IMG/VR virus record: IMGVR_UViG_3300046004_001366
Coordinates: 1-52,361 of that record
DNA: 52,361 nt
Origin: a virus
Taxonomy: Duplodnaviria > Caudoviricetes
Direction: 5' to 3' (one strand)
Both the position numbers and the translations under genes were made by a program. Below the pieces are notes generated by a model. The model was not told where the DNA came from, did no database searches, and was given only the letters and a program-made list of their open reading frames with translations. Of the stretch, positions 16,301 to 42,013 are shown one piece after another; position 1 is the stretch's first letter, and each line of letters starts with the position of its first letter.

Positions 16301-19300
16301 GACACGCCCAGGCGGTCTGGTGATTGGTATCACGTCATCCAAGACGATGGACGGCAAAAGCTCGCTGGTGCGCAAGTATCTGGCTGCGCGTGGTGAACTC
16401 GTCGCCGCCTTCCGTTTGCCAACAGGAGCCTTCGGCAAGTACGCAGGCACCAAGGTTGTCACTGACATCATCATCCTCAAGAAGCGTGAGACTGTCCTAG
16501 AGCGCGATGCTGGGGGCGAGGGATGGATTAACACCGTTCGCGACACGGCCGGGCGCGACTTTGACATCAATGAATACTTCGTTGCCAATCCGCAGAACAT
16601 TCTTGGCGAGTTAGATTTTGGGCACGGCACCACCTTTAACCGTGAGGGCATGATCGTGAATCGGTTGCCGAATTACGAGCAAGTGCTGCCGCGCCTGTTC
16701 GAGCGCCTGCCCGAGAATGTGATGACGCCGTGGAATCCCGTCGGGCATGAGCGAATCATCAACAACACCACCAAAGAGCGCAGGCAGGGAGCCGCAGTAT
16801 TCGCCAATGACGACCTTTATGTCGTGGACGGCGAAAGCCTTGTTCCTTTGCAGGACCGCGCCAAATGGCAGACCAAGACAGGCACGGCGAAGCGTCTTGC
16901 CGAGGGTGTGTCACTCATCGCTATGCGCGACGCCTTCAACGCCGTGCTCGACGCCAACCGGCAAGGGTCGGACGGCGAGACACAGCGGAAAGCATTGCAG
17001 GAGGCTTATGCGTCCTTTGTGAAGGATCACGGCCCGCTTCACAAGTCGTTCATGCTTGGACGCTTCCGCAAGGCGGGCGACCAAAACGCCATTGACCTTC
17101 TGGCGCTTGTCGAGGTCGATGAAACGACCGGCGCGGAAAAGCCGCGCTCACTCATGCTGCGCAACACGATGCGCAGGACGCAACTCGACGCGAAGGGCAG
17201 CATCGCCGACGCCTACGCCTTGCACCGCTCCGAGACGCTCGACTTCGATGCGGCCGCAGTGGCGAAGCTGGCGGGCGACGACACCAGCCCGAACGATGTG
17301 ATCGCCTTCCTCCAAGAGAAGGGACTCGTCTTCAAAATGCCAGATGGCCGGTGGATGCCGAATGAAATCTATCTCGCGGGCAATGTCCGCCGCAAACTGC
17401 GCGAAGCCATCGCCGCCAAAGAGGACGGAGTTGAAGGCATGGACGTTAACATCGACGCACTGACGTCCATCATTCCCGAGGACATCCCGTATCACAAGAT
17501 CACCGTGCAGATGGGGGCGGCGTGGATTCCGACCTCCGACTATGAGCAGTTCATCACTGAACTACTCGGAGGCAATGCCGCCGATGTGCAGGTCGTCAAA
17601 GGCATGAGCGGCTACAATGTCCGAATCGGTGGGCGCACAGCGGACAGCCGCGACGCCCGCCAGACGTGGAACGTAGTGACTGAAGCTGGCCAATCGCTCC
17701 TTCACCCGAGCCGCATGTTCCAAGCCGCGATGAACGGCACCGAGTTAATCATCAAGCGGGAAGTTGAAGACGAGAACGGCAACAAGCGCGAGGAGGTGGA
17801 TGAGCCCGCCACCAGACGCGCTATCGCTATGCGCGACAGCATTCGTGACCGTCTCCAGATGTGGGTTTGGACGGATGAATCCCGCATTGCACGACTGACC
17901 TTGGACTACAACGAGATGAAGAACTCCGTCATCAACCCAGAGTTTGACGGCTCTCATTTACGCCTGCCGGGATTATCACTCACCTTGAGCGACAGCGGCG
18001 ACCCATTCGAGTTTCGTCAGCATCAGGTGAATGCCGTATGGCGTGGCATCCTTCAGAAGCAGGGCGTTTACGCCCATGAGGTCGGCACCGGCAAGACCTT
18101 CACTATGGCAGGCTTAGCAATTGAGGGCCGAAGACTCGGCTCACATCGCAAGCCGATCATCTTCGCTCACAACGCAAACGCCGCGAGCGTCGCCGCTGAC
18201 TTCCGTCTCGCTTACCCTGGCGCGAAGATCCTGTTCGTGGACAATCTTTCACCTTCCACCAAGGAGTTGACGCTTCGGCAGATCGCCACCGATGAATGGG
18301 ACGCCATCATTGTCCCGCACTCACTGGTGGACCGTTTCGGATTGAGGCCGGAAACTATGCGAGCGCTGGCACAACCAGAACTCGACCGCATTGAGTCTGA
18401 GTTCTGGGCAGAACTGGACGAGCTTGGCGTTGATTCCTCATCAATTGATTTGGATGACATGCGCGGCATGGGGCAAATCCTGAACCGTCTCAAAGGTTCA
18501 GCAACGGCCAAGGAACTCGCCAACGCTCGCCGCCGCATCATGACCCGCATCGAAAAGCAGGTCGCGAAATTCTCCGGCCCCGGTGTCGTGTACTTCGAGG
18601 ACATGGGTATTGATGCTGTGATTGTCGATGAGGCTCACGTCTTCAAGAAGATCAGTCTAGCGACGCGCAAGGTGATCAAGGGACTGAACAAAACCGAGTC
18701 AGGTAAAGGATTCCAACTCGGCCTGCTCACCGACTGGTTGAAAACACAGACAGGCGGCAAGGGCGTTCATCTCTTCACCGGCACACCAGTTACGAACACA
18801 CTCAATGAGGTGTTCAACATGATGCGCTTCGCGATGGATAAGGAAATGGGCGAGTCGGGCATCGACAACTTTGACGACTGGTATAACGATTATGCTGACG
18901 GATTCTCCGACACCGAGCCGACATCTGGCGGCACCTATGAAGAAGTTACCCGACTGAGGGGATTCCTCAATGTGCCAGAGCTTGCCCGCTTGGCAGGCCA
19001 AGCCTTTGATGTGGTGCGCGCCGACGAAATGCCAGAGTTCAAGCCCCGCGCTTCGCATGAGGGCATCACGGAAAAACCCATTGGACGACCGCACAAGCAG
19101 GTGCGCCCCATCGTGATTGAGCCGACATCCGTGGCGAAGCGACTCAAGGCGTGGATTCGTCAACGGTTCTTCTATTATCGCGGACTCTCTGGGCGTGAGC
19201 GCATGTTCCTGAAAAAGATGGGCGGAGATCAGCCCGTCGTCATGGATGGCGACGGTAAAGCGGGGGCGCTTGACCCGCGTTTCGTAAGCCCAACAGCCGA

Positions 19301-22300
19301 AGATGACGCAAACTCAAAAGTGAATTATGCGGTGCGTAACATCGTCGAGCACTACAACGAGCACGACCTCGCTACGCAGATGGTATTTGTAGAGCGTGGA
19401 GCAGGCGATTACACCGAGGCTGATGTTGCCGTTCGTGATGCCGAAGGGAAACCGCAATACGACAACGACGGCAACCGCGTCGAGGTCAAGGAGCGCCGGT
19501 TACAGTTCAATCTCCTGCGCGACATGGTTGAAAAGCTGGTCGCTGAAGGCGTGAAGCCGGAAGAGATCGCCGTTTTTCAAAACCTCAAACTGCTACCTCT
19601 GCCAGACGGCAAGGATGATATTCTTTTGAGAGTTCACCGTGTTAATGGGCCGGAAGACAAGGAGGAAGCGGCCAAACTGATGCGTGAGGGTAAAATCCGC
19701 ATCGCTTTTGGTGGCACCGAGACAATGGGCACAGGCGTCAACGCACAGACATGGATGCGCGCCATGCACCATCTGGACGTTCCTTACATGCCTGGAGAAC
19801 TTGAGCAGCGCAATGGACGCGGCTGGAGACAGGGCAATAAGTGGAACACCGTCTTTGAATATCGCTACACCGTTGAGGGTAGCCATGACGCGAAGATGTG
19901 GAGCACTCTGCTAAACAAGGTCCGGTTCATTGAACGGTTCATTGGGATGCTGCAAGGCAAGAACCTAAGTCGCAACTTGGAAGGCGACGGCGCAGATGCC
20001 GCCGACGACGAGGACGGCATGAGCAACGCGGACTTTGAACAGATGTTCTCGACTGCCGCAGGAGACCCGCGCCTTATCTTGCGTCTCTCCCTCGGCAAGA
20101 AGGTTGATCGCATCCAGCAGGCCAAGAACATGCATCTTCAGTTCATGGAGCAGACTCGACGCAAGAACGCCGCTATCGAGAACAATGAGATTCCGAGGTT
20201 GGAAGCTGCTGTTCGGCAGTTTGAGAAAGGCGACGAGCTTTATCAGCAGGTTGCTGGAAAACCATTCTCGGCAACTCTTCGCGGGGAAACTTATACAGAG
20301 CGCAAAGACTTCGATGAGGCTATGACACGCCTTCCGCGCTACTTGGATCGCAAAGAAATCGGCACCTACGGACCTTTCCGCATTTACATCCAACCAACAA
20401 TGGGCGGCGGTTATTACGAGCTATCAGGGCCGGATAACTTCAACGCGTCATTCATGAATCCAAGCATGGCTTCGCTTGAGGGCACGCTACGCGCCATGAA
20501 GAAAAAGGCAGAAGGCAAGGCCGAAGAAATTGCAACCCTTCAGAAGTCGCTCGTTCGAGCCAAGGATGAGATGTCGCGCCCATTCCCCAAGGAGGAGGAA
20601 CTCACCAAGGCTCAAAACGCGCTGGCAGTCATCGAGTCGGAGATTCGCATCAGCCCCTACCCGGCCCCCGGCTGGCTTCGAGTCGGAGCGCCCCAAGGCT
20701 CTCTCATGTACTTGAAGGAGAAGGGCAAATTGAACGCCTACGACGTGGAAGCGCATCGGTGGGATGAAAACAACTATTGGGCAATGATCAGCCGAGACGG
20801 CGAATTGTTCCCCATCCCCTACAATGAAATGCTGGACGCCACCGGGGCGCGCATCTTTGAAGATCACGACCACACGGCACCGCCCGAGGCTCCCCCAACA
20901 ACGGCAGACGGCCAACAAGGCTCATTCCCCGGTGTTGAAGTCGGACTCGATGCCGAGTTCGGTTATCGAACATTGATCGACCGAGTGACCGGCGAGCGCA
21001 GCATCGAGCACAAGTTCTACACGCGATACGCGACCGTCGCCGATGGCTTCTATAATGCCGCCGCAGGTGGCGGGCGACTGCCTGCCAATGCCGCCGACTA
21101 CCTTCCCAAGACTGTTGAAGAGCTTCAACGCCTGCTCGTCAGATCGGGCGCGGCGAGCGGTCTGTTCAATGGCAAAGATTGGAAGTTCCTCGCTCCCGGC
21201 GAAAGCGATGAGCTTTATAAGCCCACCGAGACATGGCGAGTATTTGCCCCTGGCGGATGGATGGTTGGCGAAGGAGCGTCCCCTCGCGAGGCATTCTTTG
21301 AGGCACGCAACCATGACCAGAACGGAGACACCTTCATGGACGCCATTCGTTATGCCGTGATGCAGTTGCCGGAATCTGAGGATGACATCAATGAACTCCT
21401 CAGAATCGCGTCCCAGCTACCCAGCGGTATTGAGTTCCAGATGATCGACCCTGGATTAGACGACCCCTTCGAGAGCGAAAACGATGATACCAACGTCTTC
21501 CGCCTCACAAGCGACGGCTACGGCATCTTAGGTAGTGGCGAAAGACGCGCATTCGCCCTTCGCGATGCGCTGACGCATGAGCGATTCGGACGCACATTCA
21601 AGGAGGCTCTCGCCATCTACAACGCGCCCCCAGCGAAAAACCCGCTGGAGCGACTTGCCGACGAATCACGCCTACTCGATACCGACCGCCGTAGCCGTGG
21701 GCTTTTCCGCCGTCGTGCCAAATTGCGCAAACTCCTCGATGTGATTGAGCGCCGACGCGCCGAGGTGGAAAGCAACGAGGACAGATACCGCAACCGTGAC
21801 GCGCAAGACGAGACGCTCCAAAGCCTCATTGCCCGCGAGAAGGCGCTGACCGAGAAACTCGCCGAGGTGGAGTCGTTCATCATTTACCGTGAGCGCACCG
21901 AGGAGCCTTTGCCTCTCGCTGCTGCGGACCGGCCAATGATGGACGCGGAGGAGTTCGCTGATGCGCTTGACGCCTTGAACTCCGACATGCCGAGCGAATC
22001 TGACCTGGACGACCTTCGCCAGCGCGCCGGTCTCGATTGGGGCCGCGAATACACAGACAGCGAGCTTGCCGGACTGTCTGGCGGTATGCGCGCAGGGATG
22101 CGGACCGCATACGATGACAAGCTTGACCGGCAGACGCACGAAGCTTGGAACGAAAAGGCTCACAAGCTCATTGATGAAGATCCTACCCGGGTGCTTGCCG
22201 ACTTGGTGAGCACGGCGACAGATCGCGGCTCCATCATCAACCCTGTTCAGGTCAAGGCATCGCAGATTCTTCTTCCGCAACTCATGCGCGAGGCAATCGC

Positions 22301-25196
22301 CAACCGTGATGCCAAATCCTTCCGCATGGCCGAAACTCTGACGTGGGCATACGACGCGGCAGGGACGGAAACAGCGCGAGGACTCGCCGCCCGCTGGCAA
22401 CCGCACCTTTCCCCCGAGGAGAGGCACCGCGAAGTCTTGGCGAAGATCATCTTCACGCCGGGCGCAAAGGACCGCGAGGACATCAAGCGCGCCCCGACAG
22501 ACCGCGCCCAGGCTGAGCGCATTGCTTCGCTGGAGAAAGAAATCGAGCGTGTGCGCTCTGAGGCGACCGAACGCGAGAAGGACATGCTACGCCAAGTGGC
22601 AGGCATGACGGAATCTCTACGCGAGGCACGCCGCAAGGATGCCGTTGCCCTGCGCGCCGAAGCCAAGAAGGAACTCGATGCCCTGCGCGCCGAGTTGAAG
22701 CGCGTGCAGGCACAGAAGACGCAGCTTCAGATGCTCCACGACATCAACACGGAGCGACTCGCCAAGATCGAGAAAGCCTTTGAGGAAATGGGCATCACGT
22801 ACCATGACATTTTCGTTTCCCGTGAGATTTCGATTGGTCTCAAGACCTCCAGCGTGGTGAAGAATGCCATGCAGCCATTCACGCCGAAGGAGCGCCAAGC
22901 TCTCCAGATGATGATGGATGGACGCAGCGACCGGCAGATTGCCAATAAAACGGGCATCAGTCGCAACAGCATGGCGGGAATTGAAGCGCGTTTTGACAAA
23001 GTGCTCGATGCCAAGCTCGAAGCGCTGGTCCGTCGCGGGTTTGACATCTCGAAGGCTGATGGCCTCGATGTGGACAAGCTCATCGACAAGGCCGGTAACA
23101 TCCTCGCCGCTGCCGACCGCCCGGTTGCGACGCTGACCGCCGAGGAGGTTAAAAAGCGCGTGGGTGAACTGCGTGCCATCATCAAGCCATCTCCTGACGC
23201 TCGAAACTCCGGCGCTCTCCGCCGTCTGAAGGGTGAAGAGTCCAAGGAGGCGCCGTACGGCTTCGACATCAGCCGTCCAGAGCACGCAGCCATGCTCATG
23301 CGCGCCATTCACCGCATGGACAGCAACCCAATGGACATGGTGTATGAATACTGGATCAACGGGCTTCTCTCCGGCCCTGCGACTCACACGGCCAACATTG
23401 CTGGCAACCTTGGCAGCGCTGGTCTGGAATACCTCATTCAGCGACCGATTGAGGCAATCACCAATGCCGTTCTCTTCCAAAACGTCGCAGGCGCAAGCCT
23501 TGGCGAATACCAGAGCATGACCAAGTATGCCGCCCGCGCAGCAAGCACCGCTTGGCGCTTCGCTCGCATTGCCTGGAACACCGAGGTTTCCCTCTTTGAT
23601 TCACAATGGCTCAACAAGCCGCTCGTCGTTTCCGGCAACAGCGGAGACAAGGGGCAGTTGGAGCGGTTTGCTATCCCTGGCACTACCGGCCGCGTCGTTC
23701 GGACTCCGACACGCTTCCTGCAATTCGCGGACGAATGGGCCAAGCATTTCTTCGGCATGATCGAGGCGGCAGCACAAGCGCACCGGTTGGTAAAGGCGGA
23801 CGGTCTAAAGCCCGGCAGCGCCGAGTTTGACGACCGGGTGGAACAACTCGTCGGCATTCCCGGCTCTCCTGCTTGGCTCGCTGCCGTCGATAAGGCGCAC
23901 CGGTTGACCTTCACGAACGATCTTCCTGCGCCATTGGCGAAAGCTCAAGAGATGCTTCACTCCCGCGCTAAAACGCCTTGGGGAGCCGTCGCTAAAACGC
24001 TTCTGCGCTTCGTGTTCCCATTCATTCGCACGCCATACAACATCTTTGCTACTGGTCTGCGTAAGACGCCTCTCGGATCTGCGCGTATGATTGGCAAAGG
24101 ATTGGCCGCATGGCACGGGAAACAGCCATTCTTCGACAGCTACCCACAGGCGGCACTCGCGACAGACATCGCCGAACAGCTTCTCGGCTGGTCTGCGGCA
24201 ATGATACTCTTCGCCATCGGCGAGGGAGACCCTGACGACGAAAAGAAGACGATCCTCATCACCGGCTCTCGCTCACGCAGCGACGACAGAGGCGAGGACC
24301 AACTTCTTGACCGCCTGCGCGGTGGCGAGACAACCATCCTCATCAAAGGCAAACCTGTTTTCAATTATGGACGCTACGAGCCTTTTGCGACGATCATCTC
24401 GACGCTGGTCGATGCTTCTCGCGACATGAAGAAGATCAAAGGCGGGCAGAAACCAAGCAAGGCAATAGGTGAAGCTGTGCGAGGTGTGCTCGATCAAGCG
24501 CGAACCAAGACGTTCCTGCAAGGTCTTGATGGCCTCATGCAGCTTATTGAAGGCCGCACTTCCACCACGATGCCTGAGCAACTGCGCAAGTTTATCGTGA
24601 CCGGCATTGTGCCGAACCTTGTCCGCCAGCCAATCCGTAACGCTGATGAGTTTGCCAGAGACACACGCAATGCGCCTTGGTATTACCATGCCATCCCTCT
24701 TGGTGGTCTCGCTGAACCGCTGTATGACCTTTACGGCCGACCAGTGGAGAAGATGGGCAATCCAGTCACGCGGGCGTTTATCAATACCCCTGTGCAGCCA
24801 AGCACTCCGACCAATCCGGCTGACCGTGCATTGCGCGTCTGGAACGACCGGAATCCCCTGCGTGGAGATGGCGACGGTATGGGATACTTCCCGACGAACG
24901 TCGATAAGAGCATGATGCGCTTCAAGGATGCCTCCAAAAAATGGCAGGACATGACACCACGCGAAGCCGCAGAACTCCGCCGCAAAGGTGGACAAATCAT
25001 GGATGCGGAAGCGCGGGCGGCAATCACCAACCCGACAAACCCGACTCAGGACGACATCGACAGGCTCAAGAAGGCGCGCAACAAGGCGTTCTCGAAGGCT
25101 AAAAGTGAGATGTTCTCGGGCGGTGTTCGTCCTGTGCTGCCAGCACGGCGACCTCCATCACTGAGCGAAATCTTCGGGCAAGTGCTGCGCAGGTAG
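7362..25196 (+). CDS. Giant (5944 aa) polyvalent/DarB-like virion protein: HExxH domain, inorganic pyrophosphatase-like domain, GNAT-like module, N6-adenine-type DNA methyltransferase, SNF2 helicase, HTH
   Basis: HEWIH (12051-12065); KAGNYEKGH...ISIENPAGSERSG...HYGYIKGTEGKDGDHIDIF (~12770-12960); MTase motifs LEPSEGIGNF (~16005) and GNWPF (~16200); SNF2 motifs HEVGTGKT (18075-18098), DEAH (18627-18638), TGTP, GTGVNAQ, QRNGRGWRQG. Confidence 0.9.
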   Translation: MALPFGIPNVSSRPTGTPAPSLPFGPPPSKSDPMSATNMAAQGVNPLYYGGSEALAADHNRDAAWNLERENHDRAVAQADKMAKDRQSEFDAAEAERVKARDEQNERDVAQASLAEATAPKTLTDSQRRDAEETAKKKSDEAKRAAIGGMQTSLEPIASQTQGGFLGFGAEPTDAAKEATAKIQALQNQEVSDADLAEYRKAHPETFAELDRVQATITQDDAARAARKPAEVALARAKAIKAGLSPEEADAQLASQSPQSADPKIADMQRVAASGLMEREQARIGELTQRIQDRHNKLAEIDAESQNIEQRLIQGGTAAQIGPLTQRRHELIAQRKAEQVAIANESEAAAGAQRAIEIRRQRIQEAEAMQGKGVDAPSATGYLPAKDPAKATEEVRAAKKADAEKAIGVLSDRSKQRADAARAASEQVEAQVRTGKITPEVGAQLREKAIEKSMQDFDAQFDEDKSTLADSLDDYAAGTIDADTLNSIFHAAGAAKSGVESFRDNADNLKKKDETLEALQKVALGDDNGNSNPSLNGEEMRLLSEIAGHESDANNPLNWKAKATSVTTDEYGRSHDVFSEADYEKLRSQSKQAALDGKKQLTELRAANRAKMVAELEKRGITDPGEQAQLIVEADLKAASKARPGIAANVAARGGIAATLAQKLPFAGGVVEASRILPYAATAIALEAGQTPPVEDLEALAAFAKFAGTDSTFWSKTADVVSALPGFVIELNTTGGIATAVKKVGLEGMKKALTGLASVQGRKQLAAAIARASAENIGKLGSKKVLAMRLGSGLAQEAVRLAPASAGRIASKFTQDTALSGVNLSPVEGKLAASMNMENRRGSGGRLLDAVVDSYIENVSERSGKYVMGALGMIGKKVLPQAVSGFFAKAGNAAKDGMLRAAFVKSLMAKNPGIEPLKLQRYLKGANIGGTIEEMMEERVGGAARDAYAAITTGRDDNKVLGYITKPTMEDLLVELVSFSVPSGISAVQTNRHFSGLDKAIAGSDAESTERINDIDLNPQAHADRLTELGGTPFEASDITRATDLVGSVAGADSIRSSDKTQADYMERSRAAIDAGDLDKASKLMQMALQQSRTRSSLADQELGQAALAAQQIEQARAGGKTAAAQLRQQAQDTLAADPKAKKQAETLEAHAAALETVADRAAAIVKIARGRGDTLTTAEKNALGDAVVNEGQGMIITDAAREELAQIAPAAARYVKQTETMRREQLSRDQAQAAGAAAPVSTPAPAPTAANPPPAASPARGTSTNAGGAPSVTGAVTAQGAATAPPAGAAPAGGKLPKDLAGANPRYNHGSKAFEVEFENDIDKAAYIAAQENPSKRDADYVAWAVQASGMTEAEVRDHGKKVRAKLKEIGAKSNSGKLKLKDQMPQATNSQPPASQSPAKPAAAPAPAAQPAAKPAVWKGVGISGKTAEIPADEAATQDEAEKKLIKKLGEPLRSGGVTSPTKAKGAPAAKPTASAPAAAPAQTPADKKRDRLRTVGEQIDALLPSYRDAFTGIVEESGKGRRAWLDPKTGALHLNRQQFAAQSADLDDAALAAEIETIIRHEWIHAGTVAVRNDAQAAAFWTELGKSKAGKDIQTAALRAYNAPYEARGVVPPALTDAQSGYEAYRMLYELARDGKLSETTNIPESLAADIRSFLQGLVDWMRARLAKLPKKLRSQIEADIAEIEGALKKLTPAAPAAKASKPAPVNAADTQSLTIVRLKDGRLVHVHEKELAKNSARLRMFTPEGEPIKGAAGVLERSDIDLSPIEGAANNAPDTVDAAAHEAATSPNNDKAHPTPDEIKAGNYEKGHFTLGGMDISIENPAGSERSGIDKDGKKWTVPMKSHYGYIKGTEGKDGDHIDIFIAEGTPKDYDGPVFVVNQMRPVTLVQSDIRTGKKTEVPAGKEFDEHKAVTGTGITTEAEAKAAYLANYSEGWDGAGSIVSFANLAAFKSWAMGKKRVGALTQSAADSHSRAASAEAGEAKQAPLPAEQIAKLTDANKQLSRWSSNNNASARHQIAINKYASGAWTLQDTPSPEKTLADIEQETAKARTAWIVTHMGYINQKNDALVQALAADPKVVAIATNENNDAMNMRVYLADRIKAQMVKDLKANLSGDSRFGLYYDFTQERIKSADWLDHIAESLKKAIKPAVSNDTSAPTFERGDRVTWTSGKESLSGTIRSVSSDGTASVDTDQISFAGGVPIGRIETVQMSRLSKEGEAKPAPKPKAEPAPAPAPKDAADEALAQAFEGLFAADRPIVDPVVQALRVLSQNDEFFRFSIVPQDVKSLTEIMQRVVPGSTYKGDATRNNEPDLTEAYSRQMFATKSGAPFFVFQGYHDGEKTTWIDVSGLKEGGGGSAIYAAVGNYAYNNGLKFIGDPAGLSEAAVMRRTSHLLSLALRYGTTKHIAPSREQLDGVPEKGIAPVRWDGDDTAKIRSLIESFLGTLQKRYPEILNARYDFDAGQFLDSQGMPIRFDRAKKPAIEAGDENSAEMGIEARKSGARAGEATLRRGIFLKSLVSGEGRERSELLEQLELWNRAYVTSGNLDGLFAADRPVADIEQADLPKDRRAAMLNAAGALIDAEVKRPDELAARLEKLAPGGQLRKYSRSFWRLMSGFDSTLAENPDWNAIYDAIDNPTTEKDTLTDETQTDIRPQDSEGLPPVGGSDGSNGLGIPEPDQAGASGRSAQGGVNSGEGGDSPPVGESDGGPSLGDGKKPSKRNRTPRGGKGSSADANPIDGGAAGAVDEPTRSPGRENYFLSDPESIVGGGQKTRFNKNKLALETLELIQEEGRDPTPAELDILAAYTGWGSLAQELFQGGTFERHAGPQDWKDESMWLRERLGKEAWMSAFDSILNAHYTDPPTVKAMWDMVRRLGFKGGRALEPSEGIGNFWGLMPRDMMALSMLTGIEMDSTTAAIAKMLYPQVNHRLMPYQQSQTSDNFYDLVIGNWPFSANDKPADPRFDHLKATVHNFFFVKALHQTRPGGLVIGITSSKTMDGKSSLVRKYLAARGELVAAFRLPTGAFGKYAGTKVVTDIIILKKRETVLERDAGGEGWINTVRDTAGRDFDINEYFVANPQNILGELDFGHGTTFNREGMIVNRLPNYEQVLPRLFERLPENVMTPWNPVGHERIINNTTKERRQGAAVFANDDLYVVDGESLVPLQDRAKWQTKTGTAKRLAEGVSLIAMRDAFNAVLDANRQGSDGETQRKALQEAYASFVKDHGPLHKSFMLGRFRKAGDQNAIDLLALVEVDETTGAEKPRSLMLRNTMRRTQLDAKGSIADAYALHRSETLDFDAAAVAKLAGDDTSPNDVIAFLQEKGLVFKMPDGRWMPNEIYLAGNVRRKLREAIAAKEDGVEGMDVNIDALTSIIPEDIPYHKITVQMGAAWIPTSDYEQFITELLGGNAADVQVVKGMSGYNVRIGGRTADSRDARQTWNVVTEAGQSLLHPSRMFQAAMNGTELIIKREVEDENGNKREEVDEPATRRAIAMRDSIRDRLQMWVWTDESRIARLTLDYNEMKNSVINPEFDGSHLRLPGLSLTLSDSGDPFEFRQHQVNAVWRGILQKQGVYAHEVGTGKTFTMAGLAIEGRRLGSHRKPIIFAHNANAASVAADFRLAYPGAKILFVDNLSPSTKELTLRQIATDEWDAIIVPHSLVDRFGLRPETMRALAQPELDRIESEFWAELDELGVDSSSIDLDDMRGMGQILNRLKGSATAKELANARRRIMTRIEKQVAKFSGPGVVYFEDMGIDAVIVDEAHVFKKISLATRKVIKGLNKTESGKGFQLGLLTDWLKTQTGGKGVHLFTGTPVTNTLNEVFNMMRFAMDKEMGESGIDNFDDWYNDYADGFSDTEPTSGGTYEEVTRLRGFLNVPELARLAGQAFDVVRADEMPEFKPRASHEGITEKPIGRPHKQVRPIVIEPTSVAKRLKAWIRQRFFYYRGLSGRERMFLKKMGGDQPVVMDGDGKAGALDPRFVSPTAEDDANSKVNYAVRNIVEHYNEHDLATQMVFVERGAGDYTEADVAVRDAEGKPQYDNDGNRVEVKERRLQFNLLRDMVEKLVAEGVKPEEIAVFQNLKLLPLPDGKDDILLRVHRVNGPEDKEEAAKLMREGKIRIAFGGTETMGTGVNAQTWMRAMHHLDVPYMPGELEQRNGRGWRQGNKWNTVFEYRYTVEGSHDAKMWSTLLNKVRFIERFIGMLQGKNLSRNLEGDGADAADDEDGMSNADFEQMFSTAAGDPRLILRLSLGKKVDRIQQAKNMHLQFMEQTRRKNAAIENNEIPRLEAAVRQFEKGDELYQQVAGKPFSATLRGETYTERKDFDEAMTRLPRYLDRKEIGTYGPFRIYIQPTMGGGYYELSGPDNFNASFMNPSMASLEGTLRAMKKKAEGKAEEIATLQKSLVRAKDEMSRPFPKEEELTKAQNALAVIESEIRISPYPAPGWLRVGAPQGSLMYLKEKGKLNAYDVEAHRWDENNYWAMISRDGELFPIPYNEMLDATGARIFEDHDHTAPPEAPPTTADGQQGSFPGVEVGLDAEFGYRTLIDRVTGERSIEHKFYTRYATVADGFYNAAAGGGRLPANAADYLPKTVEELQRLLVRSGAASGLFNGKDWKFLAPGESDELYKPTETWRVFAPGGWMVGEGASPREAFFEARNHDQNGDTFMDAIRYAVMQLPESEDDINELLRIASQLPSGIEFQMIDPGLDDPFESENDDTNVFRLTSDGYGILGSGERRAFALRDALTHERFGRTFKEALAIYNAPPAKNPLERLADESRLLDTDRRSRGLFRRRAKLRKLLDVIERRRAEVESNEDRYRNRDAQDETLQSLIAREKALTEKLAEVESFIIYRERTEEPLPLAAADRPMMDAEEFADALDALNSDMPSESDLDDLRQRAGLDWGREYTDSELAGLSGGMRAGMRTAYDDKLDRQTHEAWNEKAHKLIDEDPTRVLADLVSTATDRGSIINPVQVKASQILLPQLMREAIANRDAKSFRMAETLTWAYDAAGTETARGLAARWQPHLSPEERHREVLAKIIFTPGAKDREDIKRAPTDRAQAERIASLEKEIERVRSEATEREKDMLRQVAGMTESLREARRKDAVALRAEAKKELDALRAELKRVQAQKTQLQMLHDINTERLAKIEKAFEEMGITYHDIFVSREISIGLKTSSVVKNAMQPFTPKERQALQMMMDGRSDRQIANKTGISRNSMAGIEARFDKVLDAKLEALVRRGFDISKADGLDVDKLIDKAGNILAAADRPVATLTAEEVKKRVGELRAIIKPSPDARNSGALRRLKGEESKEAPYGFDISRPEHAAMLMRAIHRMDSNPMDMVYEYWINGLLSGPATHTANIAGNLGSAGLEYLIQRPIEAITNAVLFQNVAGASLGEYQSMTKYAARAASTAWRFARIAWNTEVSLFDSQWLNKPLVVSGNSGDKGQLERFAIPGTTGRVVRTPTRFLQFADEWAKHFFGMIEAAAQAHRLVKADGLKPGSAEFDDRVEQLVGIPGSPAWLAAVDKAHRLTFTNDLPAPLAKAQEMLHSRAKTPWGAVAKTLLRFVFPFIRTPYNIFATGLRKTPLGSARMIGKGLAAWHGKQPFFDSYPQAALATDIAEQLLGWSAAMILFAIGEGDPDDEKKTILITGSRSRSDDRGEDQLLDRLRGGETTILIKGKPVFNYGRYEPFATIISTLVDASRDMKKIKGGQKPSKAIGEAVRGVLDQARTKTFLQGLDGLMQLIEGRTSTTMPEQLRKFIVTGIVPNLVRQPIRNADEFARDTRNAPWYYHAIPLGGLAEPLYDLYGRPVEKMGNPVTRAFINTPVQPSTPTNPADRALRVWNDRNPLRGDGDGMGYFPTNVDKSMMRFKDASKKWQDMTPREAAELRRKGGQIMDAEARAAITNPTNPTQDDIDRLKKARNKAFSKAKSEMFSGGVRPVLPARRPPSLSEIFGQVLRR

Positions 25197-30833: not shown

Positions 30834-32528
30834 TTAGAAGCGGGCAGAAGCCGCCATTGAGCCGTCGTTGATGGTGGCAATACGAAGCATCTTCTGGCGT
30901 GTGCGATGAATCATCTTCTCGGTCATGCTGCCCGCTACGAAGGGGATAAACTGCTGACTGGCTGATTTGCCGCCAACACGGTCAACCCGTCCCGTGGCCT
31001 GCTCCATTTTGATAACGTGATCCGTTGGCATGATGTAGGAGACCCGTGCGCGCCAGCCATTGACATCGTGCAGCGAAACGGAAGCGCCCCCGGCTCCAAT
31101 GTTGTTGACGAGAACGTGTTGCCTGTCCGCCTGAAACTCCCGCTCCCAATACTGCCGCTTCTTCAAGGGCTGCCCACCATAGAACCCGGCAGAGGTGTTC
31201 AGCAGCTTCGACAGTCCAATGCGGGACTCATTGAAGTTCATAAACACGGCGACGCTTTTCCCGTCGCGCACGTCTTTCTTGATGCGGTCGGCCAGATACG
31301 GCACCAGCAGCATTTCACACTTCTTCCACATCTGCATGTGAGCCTGCTGCTCTTTGATGCGGAGTTGCGGAGCGCTCATTTGCAGGGCGAGACGACGAAG
31401 CATGTCCTCGGTGGCTTTCCATTCAGCTTCAACCTTCGCGGCTTCGGGAATATCGAATGGCAGCGTTTCAATGGTGGTCTCGGGGCATTCTTCGCCCAAG
31501 TCCTGCTTCCTAACGCGAGCGCCACGCCACGGGAAAAGCTGAGTGTTGATGCGCAACAGGTGGTGGTGCTTACCGTCCCACACATAGCTTTTCCCTTTGT
31601 TGTAACAGCCATGGTTCACAAGGAAGCGATGCCAATCGTCATCGCCCTTGTGCAATCCTGAAATGCGCCCGGCAAAGCGCATCTCAATCGGGGATGTTGC
31701 TATGGTGGCTGAAGCGACAATGATCGGTATGCCCTGGCGGACTGCCGCCGAACAACAGCGCACAGTCAACGTGTCGTCATGCCTCAATGCCTGCGCTTCA
31801 TCCAGAATGATCACGATTTCGCCCGGGTGCTTCCATGTGAATTTGCCCGTGGCATCCATGGTCGCGATGTGATCACGGAAACCACCGCGAACCGCTTCAT
31901 AAGTCGAGATGAAATGCGGAGTGATGCCGAAGTGCTCGCAGGCGCGTTGCCAGCCTGCCGCCCCGACAGTCGGGCAAAGGATAGCCGGGTCGCGCCCCGT
32001 GGCGATGGCGGCAGCGAGATCCTGATAGGTCTTGCCAATGCCCATGTCTGAGAAGTCCACAGCGCCGGGGTATCCCCATTCTGCCCGGCCCTGCATCAGC
32101 GCACGGTAAATCTGGCGGGTTGGTATCACCTGATACCCGCGCAACTTCGCCTCGATTTCGCTCGGCAGGTCAGGCAGCACGATTTGACGAGGCGCAGGAG
32201 CGCTTAACGCTAGGGGTTGATCGGTTGGTGCTTTCCCAAGTGCGATTATCTTCTCGCGGCCAACAGGAGTCAGGGTCAAGCCAGCGGGAGTCTCAAGGAG
32301 CCACTGACGCAAGAACCAAGCGCCGTTGAGTAGGCAGGTTGAAAAGCCGCGCTCCAACCATGCGCGCTTGTGCTTTACCCATGCCTGCTTGAAGGCAAAA
32401 TCATGGCTGATACCAATCTTGAGTTCACGAAACCGGCAGGTGCCGTCACGGGTCAGCTTTTGATGGAGCGGAGGCAAGGCTAGCCATTGCAACTCCACGG
32501 GTGGAGATGGGTCGGTAATGATGCTCAT
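30834..32528 (-). CDS. SF2 (SNF2-like) helicase
   Basis: SDMGIGKT, ILDEAQ, SAT, GGASVSLH, QATGRVDR; start overlaps the intI stop (ATGA). Confidence 0.85.
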   Translation of the reverse strand: MSIITDPSPPVELQWLALPPLHQKLTRDGTCRFRELKIGISHDFAFKQAWVKHKRAWLERGFSTCLLNGAWFLRQWLLETPAGLTLTPVGREKIIALGKAPTDQPLALSAPAPRQIVLPDLPSEIEAKLRGYQVIPTRQIYRALMQGRAEWGYPGAVDFSDMGIGKTYQDLAAAIATGRDPAILCPTVGAAGWQRACEHFGITPHFISTYEAVRGGFRDHIATMDATGKFTWKHPGEIVIILDEAQALRHDDTLTVRCCSAAVRQGIPIIVASATIATSPIEMRFAGRISGLHKGDDDWHRFLVNHGCYNKGKSYVWDGKHHHLLRINTQLFPWRGARVRKQDLGEECPETTIETLPFDIPEAAKVEAEWKATEDMLRRLALQMSAPQLRIKEQQAHMQMWKKCEMLLVPYLADRIKKDVRDGKSVAVFMNFNESRIGLSKLLNTSAGFYGGQPLKKRQYWEREFQADRQHVLVNNIGAGGASVSLHDVNGWRARVSYIMPTDHVIKMEQATGRVDRVGGKSASQQFIPFVAGSMTEKMIHRTRQKMLRIATINDGSMAASARF

Positions 32529-33541
32529 GCTACCCTCCTTTCAAAAGGCGTGATGTTTGGCGCGCTGTGATTATGTGCTTGGTCCATTGGGCTGGTTCTA
32601 CGTGTTGTCAGGCGAGGGAGGCAGTGAGCGTAAATTTGTGTCGTCGTGACATGCTTGTGACCCATCACCTCTTGAAGTTCCTGAATAGGCATTCCCGACA
32701 TAAGCATTTCGGTGGCAAAGGAGTGTCTCAATGAATGGACGGTGACACGCTGATTGCCGCTCCATAAGCGAACCGCTGCCGAGATGGCCTTGCCTAACGT
32801 ATCACGGTGGACATGATGCCTGCGCACAATGCCAGAACGCGGGTCGCGGCTCTCTGTATTACCAGCCCATACCCAAAACCAAGGCCAATCCTTGCCGGTG
32901 AACTTGGTAGATGGAACTTCAACACCAGGACGATCATTGCGGCGGTCATGCTCCCACACTGCCCGCATCCGCTGCTCCTGCTCTTTGAGCGCTGGAATAC
33001 ACGACTCAGGCAGGAATGTGACACGGTCCTTATCCCCCTTCCCTGATCTGATTACAATCTGCCGTTGCGCATAGTGAATATCCTTCCAGCGCAGGCTAGC
33101 AAGATCGTGACTGCGTAACCCGGAGCCATAGCCAATCTCCGCCATGAGCCGGTTTTGACCTTTCATGCAGGCAAGTAGCGCCATCATGTCCTCATGCGCT
33201 AACCACACGGGGAGTTTCTTGGGCCTGCGCGCCTTCGCCCAAGTCCCAAGATCACCTAACGGCTTCTCAATGACATGACGATAATAGAACACCAATGCAT
33301 TACGAAACAGGTTCTCGGAAGCGATTGACCAATGACGGGCCTTTGACTCCACGTACAGCCGCGCCAGTTCCTCGGGTGGCAGGGCCGCAAATCCCGGAAC
33401 TCTCACAGAAAAACGCATGAAGGCGCGGAGATGCCCTGTGTAACTGCTCTCCGTTGTGATTGCCCGTGCGCTCTTCGATGTCGCCATGACAACCCGCATA
33501 CGTTGAATGCGTTGCTCGATGATGTGTTCGTAGTTTGTCAT
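32525..33541 (-). CDS. intI: Integron integrase
   Basis: Tyrosine-recombinase residues are intact (YGSGLR, GKGDKDR, HSLRHSFAT, MGH, TTQIY). Contains the IntI-specific insertion W-x-WFWVW...SRDPRSGIVRRHH and RRPKKLPV; adjacent to an attC array. Confidence 0.93.
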   Translation of the reverse strand: MTNYEHIIEQRIQRMRVVMATSKSARAITTESSYTGHLRAFMRFSVRVPGFAALPPEELARLYVESKARHWSIASENLFRNALVFYYRHVIEKPLGDLGTWAKARRPKKLPVWLAHEDMMALLACMKGQNRLMAEIGYGSGLRSHDLASLRWKDIHYAQRQIVIRSGKGDKDRVTFLPESCIPALKEQEQRMRAVWEHDRRNDRPGVEVPSTKFTGKDWPWFWVWAGNTESRDPRSGIVRRHHVHRDTLGKAISAAVRLWSGNQRVTVHSLRHSFATEMLMSGMPIQELQEVMGHKHVTTTQIYAHCLPRLTTRRTSPMDQAHNHSAPNITPFERRVA

Positions 33542-33544
33542 ATT

Positions 33545-33579
33545 ATTGCGAAGTTCTTCCGTAGAATCATCTGTTCTGA
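33545..33579 (+). other. attI: attI-like recombination site (crossover G^TT at 33573/33574)
   Basis: GTTCTGAGAATC (33573-33584) is the exact reverse complement of cassette 1's R'' end GATTCTCAGAAC (33832-33843). No attC hairpin precedes it, and it lies about 30 bp from the intI start. Left boundary is uncertain. Confidence 0.75.
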
Positions 33580-33815
33580 GAATCCAAGACGCGGCGGGCT
33601 TCTTCCAGATACGTCCAGTTGATGCCTTCCCGGTCGGTGATGCGGATTGACGCGCCTTCCGCCCATAGAATCGCCTTGCGGAGAGCCTCTTTCAGTTGTT
33701 CGCGTGCGATGAAGTGATGCACGGCTTCTTCTTGGTGCGCAGTCAGCTCTTTTTTGAGTATGCTGTTTTCGTGTTCCAGCAGCTTGTTTTTCTCTTCTGG
33801 GGTGTATTGATACAT
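33567..33815 (-). CDS. Cassette 1 ORF, hypothetical 82 aa (stop codon lies in attI)
   Basis: MYQYTPEEKNKLLEHEN...LDSQNR*; the last codons cross the R' junction. Confidence 0.7.
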   Translation of the reverse strand: MYQYTPEEKNKLLEHENSILKKELTAHQEEAVHHFIAREQLKEALRKAILWAEGASIRITDREGINWTYLEEARRVLDSQNR

Positions 33816-33820
33816 GGTGG

Positions 33821-34192
33821 TTATTCGGGCTGATTCTCAGAACAAGCCGCGTCATCCGACGGCGATAACGCTCCGGTTTGTTTTCGGGCATCTGCGTCGC
33901 CGCGGATGCGCTCATCGTTGGGCGGCTCGGCTGGCGCTTCGGGTTGTTCGTCCATTGCCTGCTGCCGTTGCATTTCCGTGTAGTATTCTTCTTCGGACGG
34001 CTCTTGGGGCTTTGGCCGCTGTGCCCAAAGTTCAGCAGAGGCCGCGCTTTCAGCGTCCTGTCCGTTGTAGTAGCGGTCTTGCACTCGGTCTGGGTCTATG
34101 CGGTCAGTATTGCCACCGCTTCTCCACACCTCGTAGAAGACATCACTCTCGTATCTCCGTTGTTCTTCGCGTCTTTCTTCGTAGGATTTCAT
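33821..34192 (-). CDS. Cassette 2 ORF, hypothetical 123 aa (reads through attC1)
   Basis: MKSYEERREEQRRYESDVFYEVWRSGG...; the C-terminal ~30 aa (PPNDERIRGDADARK...CSENQPE) come from the attC1 bottom strand and the edge of cassette 1. Confidence 0.7.
   Translation of the reverse strand: MKSYEERREEQRRYESDVFYEVWRSGGNTDRIDPDRVQDRYYNGQDAESAASAELWAQRPKPQEPSEEEYYTEMQRQQAMDEQPEAPAEPPNDERIRGDADARKQTGALSPSDDAACSENQPE
33837..33923 (+). other. attC: attC site 1 (87 bp)
   Basis: R'' TCAGAAC, 5-bp spacer, L'' GCG(T)CATCCG pairing with CGGATGCGC, GGCGA/TCGCC stem, R' GTTGGGC. Confidence 0.88.
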
Positions 34193-34214
34193 ATTCGTTT
34201 ATCGTTGATTCGCC

Positions 34215-34306
34215 GCCCAACCAGTCACTTCAGCGAACCCGGCTGGGCGCTCTGGTTAGCAATCGGAGCGTCACTCGCGCCGGGTCGCTGAGTTCCATCG
34301 TTCCAC
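34215..34306 (+). other. attC: attC site 2 (92 bp)
   Basis: R'' GCCCAAC-CAGTC-ACT(T)CAGCG(A)ACCCGGC ... GCCGGGTCGCTGAGT-TCCATC-GTTCCAC; extrahelical bases in canonical positions. Confidence 0.92.
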
Positions 34307-34344
34307 CAAGAAAGGGATCGGCCCTTCCTTGGTGGCAGTTCGGT

Positions 34345-34632
34345 TTAGACGAGTTTCCGCCCTCCGTTTTCATCATCAGCGATCTTCACGCCGGGAACGA
34401 AGGTCAACGCCTCCGCCAGCGAATAGGTGCCGTCGATGTTCTTTTGCTGGGTCGTGACTTGGACGACGCAACCATGCGGTGTTTCCATCGCCTTAGTGCT
34501 TTTCATCCATCCCTCGTTTTGCGACGAGGCTTTGCATAGCAGCCGGAACGTGTCTCCGTTGCCGACGACTTTGATGTCTGGGACGTTTTGGCGAGCGCCG
34601 GAAACGTCTGAATTGTGCAGTGTCTTTTCCAT
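34345..34632 (-). CDS. Cassette 3 ORF, conserved phage-type hypothetical protein (95 aa)
   Basis: MEKTLHNSDVSGARQNVPDIKVVGNGDTFRLLCKASSQNEGWMKSTKAME...GCVVQVTTQQ...AEALTFVPGV; resembles a family I recall from phage genomes. Confidence 0.75.
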   Translation of the reverse strand: MEKTLHNSDVSGARQNVPDIKVVGNGDTFRLLCKASSQNEGWMKSTKAMETPHGCVVQVTTQQKNIDGTYSLAEALTFVPGVKIADDENGGRKLV

Positions 34633-34642
34633 AATATCAGAG

Positions 34643-34766
34643 GTGGAACAAGTAGCGGCAGACCAACCAGCGACCGCTCCGAGTTCCAAGTTTTCAGGTG
34701 TTAGTTTGGTTGGTGTGAGTATCGGCGCTCGCCCCCGTCGCTGTTGGCTGCGCATGGACGTTCGGC
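34643..34766 (+). other. attC: attC site 3 (124 bp)
   Basis: R'' GTGGAAC-AAGTA-GCG(G)CAG(A)CCAAC(C)AGCGAC ... GTCGCTGTTGGCTGCGC-ATGGAC-GTTCGGC. Confidence 0.88.
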
Positions 34767-34996
34767 TCAGTTTCGGGGATATAACAGACCATATGTTCCG
34801 GCACTCCGTACAGCACATTGCAGAGAGTCAGCGAGTTGCGCCATGTTGCGCGCTCCACCGTCGCAAGGCCGTTGCCAGTCGTGGACACTTCCACAGACTC
34901 GCCAGTTGCGAAGTTGCAATATTGTCCAGCCAGCGGAGCCGCAAGCCGAACAAATCGGATGCAGGCAACGGCTCGTATGGAGTTGGTAGCGTTCAT
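34694..34996 (-). CDS. Cassette 4 ORF, hypothetical 100 aa (starts in the attC4 remnant, ends inside attC3)
   Basis: ATG overlaps the TGA of the upstream gene (34993-34996); spans all of cassette 4. Confidence 0.55.
   Translation of the reverse strand: MNATNSIRAVACIRFVRLAAPLAGQYCNFATGESVEVSTTGNGLATVERATWRNSLTLCNVLYGVPEHMVCYIPETEPNVHAQPTATGASADTHTNQTNT
34945..34975 (+). other. attC: Truncated attC site 4 (R''-L'' arm only)
   Basis: GCCGAAC-AAATC-GGATGCAGGCAACGGC. AGCCGAAC complements GTTCGGCT at 34760. No matching right arm was seen downstream. Confidence 0.7.
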
Positions 34997-35232
34997 CCAA
35001 TAAGAAGAGTTTCCGGGATGGCGGACGTGATCTCGAAGATGAAGTCGTTCGCTGCCTTCTCCACGCCGTCGATGATGGCACCCTTGGCCATCACTAGTAC
35101 CTTCTCTGCCACATCGTCAGGCATGATCATTGTCGTCGTGGACTTGTCGCCGTTGATGGAGATTTCGGCCACAAGCTTGCCTTTGTTTTCGCCGTATTGG
35201 GCCACTTCAATCTTGAGCGATTTGAATTTCAT
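34993..35232 (-). CDS. Hypothetical protein
   Basis: 79-aa ORF co-oriented with the operon. Confidence 0.65.
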   Translation of the reverse strand: MKFKSLKIEVAQYGENKGKLVAEISINGDKSTTTMIMPDDVAEKVLVMAKGAIIDGVEKAANDFIFEITSAIPETLLIG

Positions 35233-35325
35233 ATCGGTGGTCTGAGGCTTGTTTTAGGGTTGCTGCTATCATTCTCATCGTTGGCAGAGAAGGGGTCGGA
35301 CCTTTCCCTGCCATTGTTTATTTCC

Positions 35326-35805
35326 TCAATCTTCCTTGGGAGATTCGCCAACTGCCTCTTCAGGCAGCAGGCTCATTTGACGCTCCTCACTGGTGATGTC
35401 CCGCACCTCAATGACTTCGAGTGTGTCACTGCGGACGAGTGTCTTTTTCTCGGGGTGGTGGATGCGCTCGCCGCTGGCGGTGTCAATGCCTGCGCATTCG
35501 TAGATCCAGTGGCATTCCACCGGGCGCTCTTCGCGGCCATCGCTCACAATGCCGCTCAAGCGAGATTGATCGACTTCGACGGTTTCAATGCGCGCCTTCC
35601 ATTGGCTTGCGGATGCCTTGGCATCGCGGGTCAGGTTGGCGATCTGCGGCACCGTCTCGGCGAGCTTGCGGGAGAACATGCTGAGTTCGTTCGTGTTCAG
35701 CACAACGAACAACGACCGGCGCTCGATTGATTCGGGCCATTCGTATTGCGGGACGGCAGGGGTATTGATGGTTTCATCTTGGGGGTCTTGCTTTTTGGTA
35801 GCCAT
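35326..35805 (-). CDS. Hypothetical protein
   Basis: 159 aa with a coiled-coil and an acidic tail; co-oriented with the operon. Confidence 0.65.
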   Translation of the reverse strand: MATKKQDPQDETINTPAVPQYEWPESIERRSLFVVLNTNELSMFSRKLAETVPQIANLTRDAKASASQWKARIETVEVDQSRLSGIVSDGREERPVECHWIYECAGIDTASGERIHHPEKKTLVRSDTLEVIEVRDITSEERQMSLLPEEAVGESPKED

Positions 35806-41909: not shown

Positions 41910-41928
41910 GTGTATTATTTGTGTGTCA

Positions 41929-42011
41929 GGTGTCAGACACCCGGGTTCTACAAGGTGTCAGACACCCTGTCAAAATGAATTTGCATAAATATGTAAAGGG
42001 TGTATGACACC
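41929..42011. promoter_or_regulatory. Three palindromic operators GGTGT(CA/AT)GACACC
   Basis: GGTGTCAGACACC at 41929-41941 and 41954-41966; GGTGTATGACACC at 41999-42011. Confidence 0.85.
41945..41973 (-). promoter_or_regulatory. Leftward sigma70-type promoter of the early/replication operon
   Basis: TTGACA-17 bp-TAGAAC with an upstream TG; operator 2 sits in the spacer. Confidence 0.75.
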
Positions 42012-42013
42012 CC

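Follow-up and report, generated by a model that had tools for sequence, protein, structure and literature searches.

An integron-like array lies around positions 33,545 to 34,996 of the virus record IMGVR_UViG_3300046004_001366 (IMG/VR; Duplodnaviria, Caudoviricetes), a linear sequence of 52,361 bases with a completeness estimate of 81% that was analysed over its whole length and is called here the window. The initial annotation of this locus had proposed that all the open reading frames (ORFs) of the cassettes are inverted relative to the attC sites, so that the array would be transcribed backwards from a phage promoter. The question raised by this locus is therefore whether a phage can carry an integron whose cassette genes face the integrase gene, and how such genes would be expressed. 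Our results show a complete integron, in which an intact IntI and an attI site are accompanied by three intact cassettes and a truncated one, embedded in the early operon (replication and recombination) of a temperate phage. The cassette genes lie opposite the attC top strand and are probably read through from this operon.

The attC sites, imperfect hairpins that carry AAC and GTT boxes, a spacer without pairing and two additional bases in one arm, were sought with a home-made covariance model, and not with that of IntegronFinder. It was seeded with 21 attC sites of canonical integrons located beside relatives of this integrase, each taken on the strand divergent from intI. Their shared structure was 87.1% paired with strong covariation, a value reached by none of 500 shuffles. 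Applied to 100 loci (1.1 Mb), this first model (R1) yielded 114 matches at E≤0.1, 112 of them on the strand divergent from intI, and these 114 matches were used to rebuild the model, yielding R2. All of the 135 control matches obtained with R2 (E≤0.01, 35 loci) were on the strand divergent from intI. In 66 further loci, R2 gave 25 divergent and 7 same-strand matches, the latter originating from L036, L068, L081 and L101. In these four Desulfobacteraceae-type loci, the attC sites are on the intI strand and mostly downstream of intI, which corresponds to the known "inverted integrase" layout, found here unprompted. In the class 1 integron of L013, taken as a control, the aadA, qacE-type and sul1-type genes were on the same strand as the attC match, and the strand reported by the model is thus the cassette coding strand in the textbook case.

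The whole window was then scanned with R2, with all filters off. Three attC sites were detected, all on the + strand and all at E≤2.6e-6: attC1 (33837-33923; 42.6 bits, E 2.8e-8), which covers the full model length, carries two extra bases on its 5' arm and has GTTGGGC as R' box; attC2 (34215-34306; 56.9 bits, E 9.7e-12), to which R1 had given 44.1 bits on the + strand versus 9 bits on the minus strand; and attC3 (34643-34766; 34.5 bits, E 2.6e-6), with GTTCGGC as R' box. The next best R2 match anywhere in the window had an E value of 0.92, and the top R2 score on the minus strand of the three sites was 7.5 bits. The attC top strand is on +, as initially annotated, and the minus-strand placement by a covariance model that had been named as the result contradicting this annotation did not materialise. 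At the position expected for a fourth site, only a remnant was found on the + strand (34945-35053; R1 12.7 bits, E 0.68; R2 8.3 bits, E 5.6), which retains good R'' and L'' boxes and has a degenerate 3' half without GTT, so that it fails as an attC. The four cassettes initially described are consequently three intact cassettes and a truncated one.

The array escaped simpler searches. A strict search for RYYYAAC/GTTRRRY pairs separated by 50-150 bases and a relaxed heuristic combining AAC/GTT with folding each gave three results in the window, none of which was within 33542-35325; both were abandoned. These motif searches missed the sites because pairing is not required between the boxes that flank one attC, which derive from different cassettes. 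No match was obtained in Rfam at gathering thresholds, and simple repeat finding revealed no obvious array.

The boundaries of the cassettes are given by the sites themselves. The attI core (33542-33579) carries GTTCTGA (33573-79) on the + strand, with the crossover between G33573 and T33574, and this heptamer is the exact complement of the R'' box of attC1, TCAGAAC. The rule that the R'' box of each attC complements the R' remainder of six bases opening its own cassette was tested along the array, and pairing over exact 7-mers was found in four cases out of four (GTTCTGA-TCAGAAC for attI/attC1, GTTGGGC-GCCCAAC for attC1/attC2, GTTCCAC-GTGGAAC for attC2/attC3 and GTTCGGC-GCCGAAC for attC3/attC4). 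Cassette 1 (33574-33917, + strand, its polarity being set by attC1) extends from the attI crossover to the G of the attC1 R' box. Cassette 2 (33918-34300, +) opens with TTGGGC, complementing its own R'' box GCCCAAC at 34215-21, cassette 3 (34301-34760, +) with TTCCAC, complementing GTGGAAC at 34643-49, and the truncated cassette 4 (34761-35000, +), with its degenerate attC, opens with TTCGGC, complementing GCCGAAC at 34945-51. When the sequences preceding intI in the window and in the related loci L023, L025 and L024 were compared, a block was found to be kept from the ATG as far as GAAC, which complements GTTC at 33573-76, with no similarity beyond, the pattern expected of an attI joined to differing first cassettes. 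The locus therefore contains what defines a complete integron: an intI gene accompanied, no more than a few kb away, by an attI and by one or more attC sites divergent from it.

The homologues of the first two cassette genes, ORF A and ORF B, provide evidence for these junctions that does not depend on the covariance model. Eleven A-family proteins, aligned together, agree up to N81 and then continue into at least eight different C-terminal tails. The N81 codon, AAC, is the complement of GTT at 33573-75, so that the break in the A family coincides with the crossover point. Similarly, the similarity among B-family proteins ends by an asparagine encoded by the complement of GTT at 33917-19. The tail of ORF B, 31 residues read from attC1, is common to three otherwise unrelated proteins (72-91% identity) and was found in none of 24 B homologues. 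Both breaks occur at + strand R' boxes and not at R'' boxes, which fixes the attC polarity independently of the model, and the divergence of the A and B homologues at GTT crossovers demonstrates that the cassettes have moved.

The integrase gene, intI (32525-33541, minus strand), is intact and encodes an integron-type tyrosine recombinase of 338 amino acids. TIGR02249 is its best-matching family, with 236.2 bits over profile positions 12-314 of 315, a score that remains below the curated cut-off of 265; a relative encoded in G009 reaches 294.5 bits and exceeds it. The closest solved structure is that of VchIntIA (2a3v, E 1.1e-36), with an unbroken alignment through residues 195-245, which correspond to the IntI-specific insert. 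This extra insert is the trait that sets IntI apart from Xer proteins. IntI is 39.5% identical to IntI1, and the catalytic residues R143, K171, H269, R272, H295 and Y304 are invariant in an alignment of 34 relatives. As regards recombination of folded attC bottom strands with attI by this IntI, which is presumably active, the G|TT junctions in the A and B homologues and the conserved attI boundary are footprints. With intI on the minus strand and attC on +, the geometry is the canonical divergent one; in the inverted integron-integrases, intI is on the attC strand. The minus-strand location of intI and the gap of 25 bases (33542-33566) between the stop codon of ORF A and the intI ATG were found as initially annotated.

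While the integrase is placed as in canonical integrons, the cassette genes are not. Canonical cassettes have their ORFs on the top strand of attC, with expression from a Pc in intI or attI; ORFs A, B and C lie opposite to that strand (codon test: 0 same, 3 opposite, 0 ambiguous). ORF A (33567-33815, minus strand; 82 amino acids) has five homologues with 64-98% identity and is predicted to form a long helix, with an AlphaFold2 mean pLDDT (predicted local distance difference test) of 84.2; its final two codons and its stop are in attI. ORF B (33821-34192, minus; 123 amino acids) is composed of a four-helix core (residues 1-85) within cassette 2 and of the tail (about residues 93-123) read from attC1. 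A total of 202 representative homologues was obtained at E≤0.001, with homology limited to roughly residues 1-92 and a conserved core of about 60 residues. The predicted structure has pLDDT values of 94-98 for residues 1-80 and of about 55 for the tail, and neither the PDB nor BFVD yielded a similar fold at E≤0.001.

ORF C (34345-34632, minus; 95 amino acids), whose ATG is 10 bases from the R'' box of attC3, belongs to the Lockin family of anti-Thoeris sponges. It matches the structure 9p8l, entitled "Lockin", with an E value of 7.8e-31 over 84 residues. Among its 4849 homologues, PF26760 was found in 120 of the 120 matches listed with precomputed annotation; the Pfam search itself gave no match for ORF C, the PF26760 model being apparently absent from that copy of Pfam. 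In the protein atlas, the cluster containing ORF C is named Lockin, and Lockin clusters are 82-100% viral. By its sequence, ORF C is thus a member of the Lockin family, other members of which are known to form hexamers and to sequester their ligands. The available text of the Lockin preprint describes these proteins as phage sponges that sequester the Thoeris signals 3'cADPR (3' cyclic ADP-ribose) and His-ADPR (histidine-ADP-ribose) (bioRxiv 10.1101/2025.07.12.664507). The phage-type gene that the initial annotation had suspected in cassette 3 is therefore a predicted anti-Thoeris gene. A 14-bp GC-rich hairpin (34303-34335) is located just downstream of the Lockin stop codon, at the left end of cassette 3, and overlaps the first bases of this cassette. 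The folding z score of the region 34195-34344 is -3.8; no U tract follows the hairpin on the minus strand, and it is thus probably not an intrinsic terminator.

The status of ORF D (34694-34996, minus; 100 amino acids) is doubtful. This ORF starts in the attC4 remnant and ends in attC3, its ATG overlaps the stop codon of the upstream phage gene E, and its codon score favours the minus strand. No relative was detected in viral contigs and no family was assigned; its atlas matches were at chance level and the atlas model has a pLDDT of 0.43. The statement that all cassette ORFs are on the minus strand consequently holds for A, B and C, which are real genes with homologues, and is doubtful for D, for which no family is detectable. 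The long ORFs on the + strand (33814-34539 and 33878-34291) are arginine-rich and had no matches in the fetched loci.

ORFs A, B and D cross cassette junctions, A and B having no stop inside their own cassette and ending in attI and attC1, respectively. The first-cassette ORF ends with N-R-stop in both the window and L023 (L023:640-651), by means of the TGA of the conserved attI block. The absence of a stop within the cassette is frequent among reversed cassette ORFs: in viral arrays, 23 of the 45 longest opposite-strand ORFs run past the junction. Another five terminate precisely on the boundary, at the complement of the R' box next to it, and a TAA is possible there if this box begins with GTTA.

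The reversal is not restricted to the window. It had been proposed that homologues of the cassette ORFs be looked for next to reverse-oriented attC sites, and such an arrangement was indeed found in viral contigs. Among 68 viral loci with Lockin homologues, ten contain attC matches, and all 32 matches are on the strand opposite Lockin; in one of these loci, G009, IntI is directly downstream of Lockin and co-oriented with it. Among 19 viral loci with B homologues, three contain attC matches, all five of which are opposite the gene. The Lockin cargo and the presence of B and C homologues beside opposite-strand attC in other viral contigs strongly support the phage-type cassette pool suggested initially.

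The orientation of cassette genes was compared more broadly by two tests that replaced a longest-ORF strand test, which was too crude for GC-rich DNA. With a codon log-odds strand classifier trained on 356 long ORFs, 50 of the 83 cassettes of bacterial genome contigs were assigned to the attC strand and 15 to the opposite strand, while 18 were ambiguous. By contrast, among the 49 cassettes of IMG/VR contigs, 3 were called same, 40 opposite and 6 ambiguous. The difference is pronounced (Fisher's exact test, p 1.2e-13) and persists when only IntI-recruited viral loci are retained (2 same versus 29 opposite, p 3.4e-11), these p values being indicative only because the cassettes within one array are not independent. 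By locus majority, the ratio of same to opposite was 18 to 2 in bacterial loci and 1 to 13 in viral loci. In L025, whose IntI is 67% identical to that of the window, none was called same, two opposite and one ambiguous. L025 also contains, upstream of this IntI, four attC sites 267-346 bases apart (L025:8702-9731), delimiting very small cassettes with little gene room.

The Pfam test (E≤1e-5) gave the same picture, with matches in 39 of 80 same-strand and 3 of 73 opposite-strand ORFs of bacterial arrays, versus 0 of 39 same-strand and 4 of 47 opposite-strand ORFs of viral-type arrays. The four viral families are a C-5 cytosine DNA methylase, a Mom-family protein, DUF4326 and HTH_17. Two of the reversed cassettes, encoding a Mom-family protein (L010:1193-1885, +, E 5.8e-24) and a C-5 cytosine DNA methylase (L012:7407-8336, +, E 4.5e-34), belong to arrays with an integrase of the same clade as that of the window. 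Anti-restriction by Mom or by DNA methylases is a classical function of phages.

To place this integrase among its relatives, a tree of 88 IntI rows was built by a quick search and rooted at the midpoint. The window groups with L023-L025, L002, L005-L012, L026, L027, L029 and L030 in a clade of 17 rows (Shimodaira-Hasegawa-like approximate likelihood ratio test, SH-aLRT, 91), and every member of this clade labelled for orientation (the window, L025, L007, L008/L012 and L010) is reversed. All 14 forward rows fall in the other, 71-row part of the tree. L030, a member of the clade that comes from a Verrucomicrobiota bin and is unlabelled in the tree, has its single cassette called opposite. L048, from a Gammaproteobacteria bin and likewise unlabelled, has three of three cassettes called opposite and sits on a long branch beside L172; both contigs may be prophage or phage contigs in bacterial bins. 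The genome-bin members of the 17-row clade are labelled Verrucomicrobiota except L023, labelled Flavobacteriaceae, a contig that may be mis-binned phage DNA. L023 is the closest relative, its IntI being 84% identical. In the clade relatives, primase-like or terminase-like genes, recognised by eye from sequence motifs, follow intI on the same strand; in the comparison of the window with L002, L005, L023, L024 and L025, only the integrase was common. The class 1 integrons found on IMG/VR contigs (L013-L018) group with bacterial IntI1, and the genes of L013 are on the attC strand. The reversal hence follows the integrase lineage and not the "viral" label.

Because the cassette genes are opposite the attC top strand, they face intI, in the same direction as the phage genes on either side. 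The array is tightly packed: 32 bases separate the crossover from the intI ATG, ORFs A and B are 5 bases apart, the start of ORF D overlaps the stop of gene E, and the stop of intI overlaps the start of the downstream helicase gene. As the initial annotation had stated, this leaves no space for a separate intI promoter. This anatomy fits a read-through from an upstream phage promoter. The minus-strand gene run, with small gaps, extends from about 41909 down to 25261 and originates in a divergent region between two ribbon-helix-helix genes (RHH_1 and RHH_5 matches). This region (41910-42013) is a candidate for the early promoter on the minus strand, since the place between two RHH repressor-like genes is a sensible one and looks like a phage genetic switch. 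The TTGACA-17-TAGAAC motif noticed initially is present there on the minus strand, with TTGACA at 41973-68, a 17-base spacer and TAGAAC at 41950-45, and two near-palindrome GGTGTCTGACACC repeats flank or overlap this pair.

We infer from this arrangement that phage early transcription would run through genes E and F, across the cassettes and into intI and the helicase gene, so that cassette cargo and integrase would be produced at the same time, at an early stage of infection or upon induction. A canonical Pc promoter firing out of intI would yield antisense RNA only. The most recent cassette would be the one farthest from the promoter, which would give a reversed expression gradient, and recombination might be tied to induction. 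The cargo would serve phage counter-defence, through Lockin in the window and through Mom and a C-5 DNA methylase in related arrays.

A number of points weigh against this interpretation. The IntI score is below the family cut-off, as mentioned above, and ORF D and the fourth attC are weak. The codon classifier is about 81% accurate (260-262 of 321 held-out segments), 15 of the 83 bacterial cassettes were themselves called opposite, several viral loci were recruited through B and C homologues, and the IMG/VR "viral" labels may include bacterial DNA; the dependence among cassettes of one array is to be counted here too. In the tree, the support of 91 comes from a quick, midpoint-rooted analysis, and the reversed L019 and L172 are outside the 17-row clade, at the base of the 71-row part on long branches with L048, where their placement is unsure. 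Finally, the candidate promoter, situated 8 kb upstream and with only TAGAAC as a weak -10 element, is not listed by the promoter scan, which returned fewer sites than shuffled sequences did (2 versus a mean of 6.1).

The distance of this promoter bears on the first alternative, in which the reversed cassettes are driven by their own internal promoters, as is reported of some cassettes in chromosomes, and not by early-operon read-through, IntI being driven by the first cassette. With the nearest plausible phage promoter 8 kb off and a strong hairpin after the Lockin gene, internal initiation would be convenient, and antisense promoters in cassettes are described in the available text of PMC8876359. 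The cassettes offer little room for them, being just 344-460 bases long and filled by an ORF and an attC, and the genes are too close together, A being 5 bases from B and E overlapping D by ATGA. Moreover, the promoter scan listed no promoter-like site within 33400-35300 on either strand, including near attI. We consider this alternative unlikely, and retain read-through from the early operon as the better account.

A second alternative is that the array is a passively captured fragment of a bacterial chromosomal integron, or a mis-assembly, the reversed ORFs being accidental and functionless in the phage. The record is a metagenomic contig, 81% complete, and Vibrio anguillarum phages carrying pieces of the host chromosomal integron are described in the main text of PMC9892861. 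A chance capture would not account for the phage-specific cargo, as the viral composition of the Lockin clusters in the atlas shows, nor for the recurrence of the reversed layout in independent viral contigs, where it tracks the IntI clade beside primase and terminase genes. Moreover, intI overlaps the phage helicase gene and ORF D overlaps phage gene E, and records of the cassette proteins exist for 4-6 contigs, the longest with 57702 bases. This explanation is thus highly improbable. That the attC polarity was mis-called, the sites being on the minus strand, the cassettes ordinary and forward, and only the integrase oddly placed, might be imagined since attC sites are near-palindromic, the model is home-made and intI on the attC strand exists (according to the text seen of PMC4889954, and in L036, L068, L081 and L101), and is hardly credible given 56.9 bits on + versus 7.5 bits on the minus strand, the choice of the intI-divergent strand in 135 of 135 control matches and of the coding strand in the class 1 control, and the homologue tails that place the junctions at + strand R' boxes and not at R'' boxes.

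The integron of the window thus shares with canonical integrons (class 1 and sedentary chromosomal) an IntI with its insert, an attI adjoining the 5' end of its gene, an array of attC sites in which one arm carries two extra bases, the G|TT crossover and the divergence of attC from intI. It differs from them by phage cassette genes that are opposite the attC top strand and face intI, by the lack of room for PintI, by a Pc that would make antisense RNA, by the location of the element within a phage operon and by ORFs some of which stop only in attI or in the neighbouring attC. Chromosomal integrons are known to contain single reversed cassettes, many of which are toxin-antitoxin pairs that carry a promoter of their own; what appears to be new is the occurrence of whole reversed arrays tied to one integrase lineage.

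Integrons are known as bacterial gene-capture devices and, lately, as anti-phage defence banks, Kieffer et al. having reportedly described in 2025 bacterial integrons as banks of anti-phage defence cassettes. According to the main text of Qi et al. 2023 (PMC9892861), 10,705 phage genomes yielded three complete integrons, one In0 and 17 CALINs (clusters of attC sites lacking integron-integrases), the complete ones being captured host or class 1 elements with cassettes oriented as in bacterial arrays. The window resembles these elements, as far as that text describes them, in that integron parts are carried by a phage and DNA methyltransferase genes are among the cargo of both; the main text, taken without its supplements, makes no mention of attC-reversed genes, Lockin or a phage IntI clade. 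With the inverted integron-integrase group (Treponema and others; Cury et al. 2016, PMC4889954), in which intI is on the attC strand according to the text available to us, our locus shares the co-directionality of intI and cassette genes. It differs from that group, on the same portion of the source, since here intI is opposite attC, only the genes are flipped and the cassettes are upstream, not downstream, of intI. The defence-cassette integrons described in the accessible text of Darracq et al. (bioRxiv 10.1101/2024.07.02.601686) likewise involve integron cassettes in the phage-bacterium arms race; unlike in that text, the carrier is here the phage, the cargo is counter-defence (Lockin, Mom, Dcm-type methylase) and the gene polarity is opposite. 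The text consulted of the Lockin preprint (bioRxiv 10.1101/2025.07.12.664507) contains neither "integron" nor "attC", whereas Lockin is here an integron cassette and is found with attC in 10 of 68 related viral loci. A full-text literature search revealed no report of attC-reversed cassette genes in phage integrons nor of Lockin as a cassette, a result on which supplementary tables (Table S4 of the Lockin preprint and those of Qi et al.) could bear.

This locus and its relatives suggest that phages use the integron machinery for counter-defence, with the cassette genes flipped. We tentatively propose, as a possibility that we hold with somewhat less than even confidence, a mirror-image cassette economy in which a distinct phage IntI lineage, the hosts of which are probably Verrucomicrobiota, would stockpile counter-defence cassettes (Lockin, Mom, DNA methylases) antisense to attC. 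Such cassettes would be expressed only toward intI from phage early promoters and would be silent in bacterial integrons, and vice versa, their shuffling being coupled to phage early transcription. If this is true, there would be two cassette pools, neither of which could be expressed in the platform of the other, and phages would possess a route for rapid exchange of anti-immunity genes. Integrase expression would then follow phage early transcription, and not the SOS-controlled promoter described for bacterial integrons. The small genes of the reversed viral cassettes to which no function is assigned, such as A and B here, would be candidates for new anti-defence proteins, and a class of cassettes in which attC precedes the gene in the direction of transcription would constrain models of cassette origin.

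The surroundings of the array are those of a phage. The record encodes a portal protein, a DnaC-like helicase loader, an exonuclease VIII homologue, an Erf-like annealing protein, a terminase, RusA and a helicase. The helicase gene (30834-32528, minus strand), directly downstream of intI, matches the phrog_62 DNA helicase (E 1e-13) and had no relatives among the viral contigs searched. Directly upstream of the array, in the same operon and on the minus strand (34993-35805), are phage genes E (34993-35232) and F (35326-35805), neither of which had a family match in family and profile searches. A second tyrosine recombinase, the conventional phage integrase (43476-44711, minus; phrog_1, E 1.9e-26), is encoded elsewhere in the record, and IntI is thus not needed for lysogeny. 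On the + strand, a single ORF of 5944 amino acids at 7362-25196 occupies about one third of the phage record.

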